DNA of 64,000 bases from an uncultured Chloroflexia bacterium (GTDB taxonomy: Bacteria; Chloroflexota; Dehalococcoidia; DSTF01; WHTK01): positions 467,084 to 531,083 of the forward strand of contig CAVTBL010000003.1 in assembly GCA_963732945.1 (NCBI GenBank), read 5' to 3'. The translations under genes were made by a program, and so were the position numbers. The notes under the pieces are model-generated. The model saw only the letters and a list, made by a program, of their open reading frames with translations, was not told where the DNA came from and ran no database searches. Every line of letters starts with the position of its first letter. Within the stretch, counting starts at the first letter, position 1. Below are positions 37,825 to 38,234 of the stretch, one piece after another.

Positions 37825-37851
37825 TTAGCACTCTCTTGTATCGAGTGCTAA
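37825..37851 (+). promoter_or_regulatory. CIRCE operator (HrcA binding site), perfect consensus
   Basis: TTAGCACTC-tcttgtatc-GAGTGCTAA equals the canonical TTAGCACTC-N9-GAGTGCTAA. Confidence 0.85.
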
Positions 37852-37934
37852 ACTAGAGCTTGTCAATCTACTCCCTGCCGGTTAGACTTCCTGCTAACGC
37901 TCCGGCGTCTGCGAAATTGGAGGACGGGACCACC

Positions 37935-38234
37935 GTGCCGCTCTACGACTACAAGTGCACCAGCTGCGAACACCAGTACGAAACCCGCGAAGGCTTCGAC
38001 GCGCCGTCGCGACAGCCCTGCCCCAAATGCGGCAGCGTCGCGAAGCGCATCCTTCATCCACCGCCAATCGTCTTCAAGGGCAGCGGCTTCTACATCACCG
38101 ACAGCCGTAAGGGCAGCCAGGCAACCGTCGGCGAAAGCGCGTACACCGGCAACAGCGAATCGAAGAGCAGCGACGCCTCGTCGACCTCTTCCGACTCCAA
38201 GCCTGCCGCCGCCGCAACCTCCAGCGACGACTAG
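37935..38234 (+). CDS. FmdB-family zinc-ribbon protein with Ser-rich tail
   Basis: (M)PLYDYKCTSCEHQYE...CPKCGS is the CxxC-N-CxxC FmdB pattern. GTG at 37935 with GGAGGA upstream. Confidence 0.8.
   Translation: MPLYDYKCTSCEHQYETREGFDAPSRQPCPKCGSVAKRILHPPPIVFKGSGFYITDSRKGSQATVGESAYTGNSESKSSDASSTSSDSKPAAAATSSDD

Follow-up and report, generated by a model that had tools for sequence, protein, structure and literature searches.

The closest described counterpart of the gene studied here is ruc of Mycobacterium tuberculosis. Becker et al. (mBio 2020; PMC7448276) characterized its product, Rv0991c, which they named Ruc, as a zinc-binding, oxidation-activated chaperone, and it is the sole family member to have been studied biochemically (PMC7448276). 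It functions as a holdase, binding DnaK and cooperating with DnaKJE (PMC7448276). The family is defined by an N-terminal ribbon of ~50 residues with four cysteines arranged as CxxC-N17-CxxC and by a variable, hydrophilic, disordered tail of 7 to 61 residues; every surveyed genome of Chloroflexi (100%) encodes a member, and in this group Ruc predominates and Hsp33 is rare (PMC7448276). Four genes are direct targets of HrcA repression in M. tuberculosis, namely, groES, groEL1, groEL2, and ruc (PMC7448276), and the same HrcA regulon appears in two further papers (PMC8557902; bioRxiv 10.1101/470989). Mutation of hrcA leads to strong derepression of ruc, and induction of ruc is also seen at 45°C (PMC7448276); Becker et al. 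2020 (PMC7448276) cite Stewart et al. 2002 for ruc, as part of the Rv0991c-Rv0990c operon, being an HrcA target. In the literature that we searched, including that on Chloroflexi, a linkage of CIRCE or HrcA to an FmdB or zinc ribbon gene was not reported outside M. tuberculosis and the mycobacteria.

We analyzed a stretch of 64,000 nucleotides (here called the window; G+C content, 66%) in which a CIRCE-like inverted repeat stands upstream of a gene for a small zinc ribbon protein (Table 1). The best explanation of this arrangement, to which we assign a probability of about 0.8, is that the repeat is a functional HrcA operator controlling a Ruc-family chaperone gene in a high-GC Chloroflexota of the class Dehalococcoidia. 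HrcA binding, induction by heat or oxidative stress, chaperone activity of the product, and transcriptional read-through into the following gene, dtd, would then be expected at this locus. What is new here is the extension to Chloroflexota of a link between HrcA and ruc that is known in M. tuberculosis, and not the discovery of a new member of the HrcA regulon.

TABLE 1 Coordinates of features at the CIRCE-ruc locus, numbered from the first nucleotide of the window
Feature	Position	Strand	Details
folD	36815..37678	+	Gene 5' of CIRCE
CIRCE operator, predicted HrcA binding site	37825..37851	.	TTAGCACTC-N9-GAGTGCTAA; 18/18 arm positions
Candidate P1, extended -10-like TGcTAAACT	37846..37854	+	Inside the operator; -35 would be the left arm, TTAGCA 37825..37830; spacer 18 nt
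Candidate P2	37860..37888	+	-35 TTGTCA 37860..37865; 17-nt spacer; -10 TAGACT 37883..37888; TSS predicted near 37895
Shine-Dalgarno sequence GGAGGA	37919..37924	+	10 nt 5' of GTG; read directly; equivalent kept in the clade alignment
Ruc-family gene, annotated FmdB family zinc ribbon protein, 99 aa	37935..38234	+	GTG start; PF09723 and TIGR02605
Terminator-like hairpin in the ruc-dtd gap	38258..38287	+	9-bp stem (38258..38280) with 7 G-C pairs, then TTTCGTT; terminator scan
dtd (D-aminoacyl-tRNA deacylase), possible read-through passenger	38301..38765	+	PF02580, E 4.5e-52

With its spacer, the operator reads TTAGCACTC-TCTTGTATC-GAGTGCTAA and forms an exact 9-bp inverted repeat. The original prediction had described it as a perfect CIRCE, and this description held: every arm position agrees with the consensus, and none of 100 dinucleotide-preserving shuffles gave a CIRCE match. 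A check for further copies, proposed at the same time, was run within the 64-kb window and returned this one site alone, even with up to three mismatches allowed. Since the 18 matching positions are A/T-rich and the window is GC-rich, a chance origin of the motif is even less likely than the shuffles indicate. The repeat begins 147 nt past the folD stop codon and ends 83 nt before the GTG of the zinc ribbon gene; because folD lies on the forward strand, there is no divergent gene to which CIRCE could belong.

The product of the downstream gene had been described as a 99-aa FmdB-type CxxC protein with a Ser-rich tail, followed by dtd, and profile searches bore this out for both genes. The 99-aa protein scored 47.1 bits against Pfam Zn_ribbon_8 (PF09723; cut-off, 34.4) and 56.3 bits over the full NCBIfam model TIGR02605, "FmdB family zinc ribbon protein" (cut-off, 31.3). 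Its cysteines form a CxxC-N17-CxxC arrangement at positions 8, 11, 29, and 32, which are the residue numbers of the C8S/C11S and C29S/C32S Ruc mutants (PMC7448276), and the protein carries the motif VFKGSGFY. The tail, comprising the 42 residues from 58 to 99, is rich in Ser, Thr, Asp, and Ala; it contains 13 Ser, 95% of its residues are polar or small, two are hydrophobic, and it is not alignable among homologues. An AlphaFold2 model using 46 homologues showed a confident beta-rich ribbon (pLDDT of 92 to 95 at residues 1 to 40) and a tail that is predicted to be disordered (pLDDT below 50 at residues 71 to 99).

For a direct comparison with M. tuberculosis Ruc, the query was a 50-residue Rv0991c fragment that we rebuilt from published primers (PMC7448276) and that contains six unknown residues. 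This fragment scored 55.5 bits against the whole TIGR02605 model, close to the score of the window protein. BLASTP aligned the two with 30% identity (E 2e-8) and with all four cysteines in register. Sequence and fold searches of the PDB with the 99-aa protein found no solved structure for the family and no fold match at an E value of 0.001; the fold search returned only marginal, generic zinc ribbon modules. Relatedness to Hsp33, which is marked by a fold of its own and a C-terminal CxCxx...CxxC zinc center, was not detected by Pfam, NCBIfam, PDB sequence, or fold matches. The window protein displays every defining feature of the Ruc family that can be tested from its sequence. If it behaves like M. 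tuberculosis Ruc, it would bind zinc and serve as a holdase activated by oxidation; the M. tuberculosis protein, whose ribbon is 30% identical to that of the window protein, is the only one with demonstrated chaperone activity. The original prediction had set the gene apart from a chaperone operon and expected the HrcA regulon to gain a protein of unknown function. Neither point stands, as the family is that of a characterized redox-activated chaperone (PMC7448276) and ruc is already a direct HrcA target in M. tuberculosis.

We took the GTG at 37935 as the start codon, and not the TTG at 37860, because of the alignment of homologues. The longer open reading frame from the TTG (124 aa) was rejected: all homologues start with MPxY, and the Shine-Dalgarno sequence stands before the GTG. 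The start codon is GTG in all 12 clade loci, each with a GGAGG-type Shine-Dalgarno sequence 5' of it. This retention of a non-ATG start in the ruc-like gene may reflect translational tuning.

The closest homologues of the window protein (up to 93% identity) came from metagenomes, and the named ones came from Dehalococcoidia metagenome-assembled genomes (MAGs). A clean test of the linkage was provided by loci that were retrieved with the protein alone (L001 to L010), among which six were distinct, at 61 to 87% protein identity; retrieval by protein could not have favored the presence of CIRCE. All six carry CIRCE with 0 or 1 arm mismatch, 74 to 101 nt 5' of the gene, and their spacers are unrelated. 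CIRCE accompanies the zinc ribbon gene even where the upstream neighbor is not folD (L002 and L010), and it extends over the stop codon of folD in L004. Identity among 19 clade loci is 99% in the arms, compared with 29% in the spacers and 32% in the 20-nt upstream flanks; this larger set includes loci fished with the CIRCE pattern and is biased for the arms, and the clean set is the six protein-fetched loci. Intact arms between randomized spacers and flanks, across loci that differ to this extent in protein sequence, indicate ongoing selection by a binding protein. The motif is a true CIRCE, kept by selection, and it is the zinc ribbon gene to which it belongs.

To look beyond this clade, we scanned 185,579 species-representative genomes with a composite pattern consisting of CIRCE, 50 to 110 nt, and P-x-Y-x-[YF]-x-C-x-x-C. 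A genuine Ruc-type open reading frame follows CIRCE in at least 116 species genomes (116 of the 120 matches listed); the other matches listed are two chance occurrences (L034 and L068) and two cases of a different kind of zinc ribbon (L064 and L113). As CIRCE was part of the pattern, these counts are a lower bound on presence and do not give a frequency of linkage. Judged by record title, the matches listed include 58 from Chloroflexota, 25 from Actinomycetota, and 11 from Armatimonadota, with WS1, "Zipacnadia," Entotheonellaceae, Kofleriaceae, and unclassified MAGs also represented. Cultured isolates among the matches listed are Tepidiforma flava (strain YIM 72310, locus L055), three Arthrobacter strains, and Glycomyces arizonensis. 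Conservation of the linkage, which the original prediction had named as a point to check, is thus found both in the six distinct related loci and in the species-level scan. With this arrangement recurring in at least 116 species genomes of several phyla, the connection of HrcA with ruc described in M. tuberculosis is probably both old and widely shared.

CIRCE overlaps or adjoins two conserved promoter-like elements. The first candidate, P1, uses the operator itself. Position 37854, three bases beyond the right arm, is a T that completes the sequence TGcTAAnnT. It occurs in all 12 clade loci, whereas the equivalent base at the dyad-mirrored upstream position is present in none of the 12; this T is therefore not part of the palindrome. 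The second candidate, P2, was the sole sigma-70-like site in a scan of 37500..38900. It starts 8 nt past the operator in the window and at an offset of 5 to 9 nt across the clade loci, and its elements (TTGnCA-17/18-TA(G/A)ACT) are kept in 12 of 12. In L004, where CIRCE overlaps the end of folD, the promoter cannot be upstream of the operator. We infer from these sequence features that P1 may be a working promoter and that either P1 or P2 could be the one in use; HrcA on CIRCE would bury P1 wholly and adjoin the -35 element of P2. A CIRCE operator usually lies at or downstream of the -10 element. Since P2, the best-conserved candidate promoter, lies 3' of the operator, the operator center would fall near -57 relative to P2, an unusual position that counts against our main explanation.

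Promoter-operator geometry differs by clade. Among the 121 loci listed, 35 (Tepidiforma and Anaerolineae types) have a CIRCE spacer that starts with TTGAC(A), e.g., L012 to L016, L023, L035, L038, L049, L055, L066, L075, and L080. This sequence is a consensus -35 hexamer inside the operator loop, giving a repression geometry unlike that of the window clade. In ~16 of the 121 loci listed, the CIRCE arms double as -35 and -10, and in the remaining loci of this set, the best -35 is upstream or downstream of CIRCE. Such clade-specific layouts offer a natural series for studying HrcA repression.

The proposed mechanism would run as follows. Under nonstress conditions, a GroESL-activated HrcA dimer would occupy the inverted repeat and block RNA polymerase at P1 and P2. 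When unfolded proteins titrate GroESL, HrcA would leave and the ruc-like gene would be transcribed. Its product, a four-Cys zinc ribbon with a disordered hydrophilic tail, would act as an oxidation-activated holdase that passes clients to DnaKJE, on the analogy of M. tuberculosis Ruc. Transcription would mostly end at the intergenic hairpin, with some read-through to dtd.

The extent of this read-through separates our reading from one in which ruc and dtd form a two-gene operon under CIRCE, with dtd a full member of the HrcA regulon and the hairpin only stabilizing the RNA or attenuating transcription. Several observations favor such an operon. Dtd is the commonest gene product encoded 3' of CIRCE-ruc (24 of the 97 loci with a downstream open reading frame among the matches listed), and at least 15 Chloroflexota genomes have dtd either overlapping the ruc stop codon by 4 nt or placed 0 to 17 nt from it, a spacing from which co-transcription in other Chloroflexota clades is strongly implied. 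Dehalococcoidia loci with overlapping ruc and dtd include L076 and L043. Even within the window clade, the gap is 12 nt in L058 and L010. At the window locus, a scan for sigma-70-like promoters in 38234..38301 found none, and the T-run after the hairpin is weak. Against the operon, the gap in the window clade is mostly 50 to 156 nt, and nearly every member has a strong GC-rich hairpin right past the ruc stop codon (seen at the same place in L001, L002, L004, L007, and L071). In L004, this element is a textbook terminator with a TTTTCTTTT run, and in L006, dtd has been lost from this position. Given the wide gap and the hairpin, we regard full co-regulation of dtd in the window as doubtful, and partial read-through is plausible. 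The proposal that HrcA control possibly reaches dtd therefore survives in part: dtd is a linked passenger of ruc, tightly so in other genomes, but here a hairpin intervenes. Other genes take this place elsewhere. A gene for a TetR-family regulator (~200 aa) is directly 3' of ruc in 20 of the 97 listed loci, in a Tepidiforma-type clade (e.g., L012, L055, L080, and L088), and a PNP/UDP-family phosphorylase gene is found there in 7 of the 97, in actinomycetes; both may be lineage-specific passengers of the HrcA regulon.

The remaining alternatives concern the product, the operator, and the nucleic acid in which the repeat acts. If the operator is real and the product is a small transcriptional or RNA polymerase-associated regulator instead of a chaperone, the name "putative FmdB family regulatory protein," which several sources give to homologues, would be apt, and the weak structural neighbors of the window protein do include RbpA and other RNA polymerase-bound zinc ribbons. 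However, all of these have E values of at least 0.07 and are generic zinc ribbon modules, the sole biochemically studied member, M. tuberculosis Ruc, is a DnaK-binding holdase (PMC7448276), and predicted co-regulation with chaperonins as well as the disordered tail fit a chaperone; we consider a regulator improbable. Still less probable is a loss of hrcA from the genome, with CIRCE being a nonfunctional remnant or a palindrome that arose by chance and the gene being expressed constitutively. Loss of HrcA has been reported for some streamlined SAR202 Chloroflexota (PMC11994032), and neither hrcA nor groESL nor dnaK was found by Pfam searches among the ~50 genes of the 64-kb window. But the chance expectation for the motif is essentially zero, the arms have stayed intact while their surroundings diverged, and the DNA is GC-rich, HrcA being enriched in non-streamlined SAR202 (PMC11994032). 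We infer from the selective maintenance of the arms that the genome from which the window derives encodes HrcA. Finally, the repeat could act as RNA: it might terminate folD transcription, affect the stability of an mRNA, or serve as an RNA thermometer, given that it can form a 9-bp hairpin and lies 147 nt 3' of folD. Yet it has no T-run after it, and both candidate promoters would start transcription 3' of the repeat, which would keep it out of the ruc mRNA. In L002 and L010, which have no folD at this place, the repeat is still found with the ruc-like gene, and the arm sequence itself is conserved beyond what pairing would demand. An Rfam scan of 37600..38400 found nothing credible, with asX2 as its sole match (22.8 bits; gathering score, 70). 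We therefore give a role as RNA hardly any weight, and the preferred reading remains an HrcA operator on DNA that controls a Ruc-type chaperone gene.

Searches for the repressor were extended in two ways. A tblastn search with B. subtilis and M. tuberculosis HrcA probes found no match in the window or in L001 to L130; the probe sequences were unverified, and the negative carries little weight. A metagenome scan with the clade operator-promoter module did not recover groES or hrcA of this lineage, and all seven high-GC matches among those listed were the same zinc ribbon gene. On low-GC contigs among the metagenome contigs listed (L131 to L250), the genes 3' of the module are mostly HtpG-like or sigma-32-like, identities that were read from N-terminal sequences only. 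The module there consists of a perfect CIRCE, NNT, TTG, 20 to 21 nt, and TARACT; it precedes HtpG (Hsp90)-like genes in many contigs, e.g., L131, L134, and L139, is also carried by L180, L229, and L231, and precedes a few sigma-32-like genes. Some of these contigs are from the human gut.

The surroundings of the locus have features of their own. An association of ruc with RidA has been noted in Chloroflexi (PMC7448276). The window contains two RidA/YjgF-family genes, at 43691..44149 (+) and 44152..44553 (-), 5.5 to 6.3 kb 3' of the ruc-like gene, and RidA-family genes are also present in L002 and L004. Between acpS and folD is a gene for a trypsin-like protease (HtrA-type, Trypsin_2; 35798..36640, +) with no CIRCE 5' of it; L001 has nothing at this spot, and L006 and L007 have a ferric reductase gene and a cytochrome b5 gene, and the position looks like a variable insertion spot adjoining the ruc locus. 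Farther downstream, nadC (quinolinate phosphoribosyltransferase; 39901..40771, -) appears frameshifted near 40300..40340, its N-terminal part (open reading frame 40076..40771) and its C-terminal part (open reading frame 39901..40392, with "GGGHNHRF") being in different frames. In the syntenic L001, nadC is a single gene of 286 aa; the window copy is either a pseudogene or the product of an assembly error. The interval between nadC and an AAA_33 kinase-like gene contains an open reading frame with a GIY-YIG domain (112 aa; 39555..39893, -). L001 lacks it there, so it may be a small gene that is mobile or was inserted.

Collectively, these data add two modest points to the HrcA-ruc link known from M. 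tuberculosis: the spread of a CIRCE-ruc module across phyla and a ruc-dtd operon in Chloroflexota. Genes annotated "FmdB family zinc ribbon" or "putative regulatory protein" that have a Ser-rich tail and CIRCE 5' of them can be taken as encoding Ruc-type chaperones; instead of being left as unknowns, they can be assigned to the class I heat-shock regulon. The implied presence of dtd on the ruc transcript in many Chloroflexota provides a testable tie between heat-shock control and chiral proofreading of tRNA. A broader proposal, which we put forward tentatively and at slightly less than even odds, is that the HrcA/CIRCE regulon of Chloroflexota includes a ruc-dtd operon and that CIRCE-ruc may be an ancient core module shared across phyla (Chloroflexota, Actinomycetota, Armatimonadota, and others). 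If so, proteotoxic stress would induce the chiral proofreading of aminoacyl-tRNA by Dtd together with a redox-activated holdase, and quality control in translation would be tied to the class I heat-shock response.

The system described here can be set beside three known ones. Hsp33 (HslO) of E. coli is a functional analogue of Ruc, as it has a four-Cys zinc center and is an oxidation-activated holdase that delivers clients to DnaKJE (PMC7448276). The likeness to the window protein is one of analogy only, with no sequence or fold relationship, and E. coli Hsp33 is not controlled by CIRCE. The classical CIRCE of groESL and hrcA-grpE-dnaK in B. subtilis (Schulz and Schumann 1996) has an operator consensus that agrees with the window site at all 18 positions, and the two presumably work alike, by GroE-titrated repression of proteostasis genes. 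The window target, however, is a monocistronic gene for a small predicted holdase, with the regulator gene not nearby, and its operator is at or upstream of the candidate promoters, whereas the classical operator lies between the -10 element and the start codon. M. tuberculosis ruc differs from the window gene in belonging to another phylum, in its ribbon (30% identity), and in its 3' neighbor, which is Rv0990c instead of dtd. The M. tuberculosis HrcA site overlaps a SigH promoter, in contrast to the window operator, which holds a candidate sigma-70-like extended -10 and adjoins a second candidate sigma-70-like promoter. In other respects, the two are alike: both proteins have the CxxC-N17-CxxC cysteines at 8, 11, 29, and 32, nearly equal TIGR02605 scores, a V-F-K-G stretch after the ribbon, and a hydrophilic disordered tail, and both genes stand apart from the groE and dnaK operons and have an HrcA operator, predicted in the case of the window, in the promoter region.
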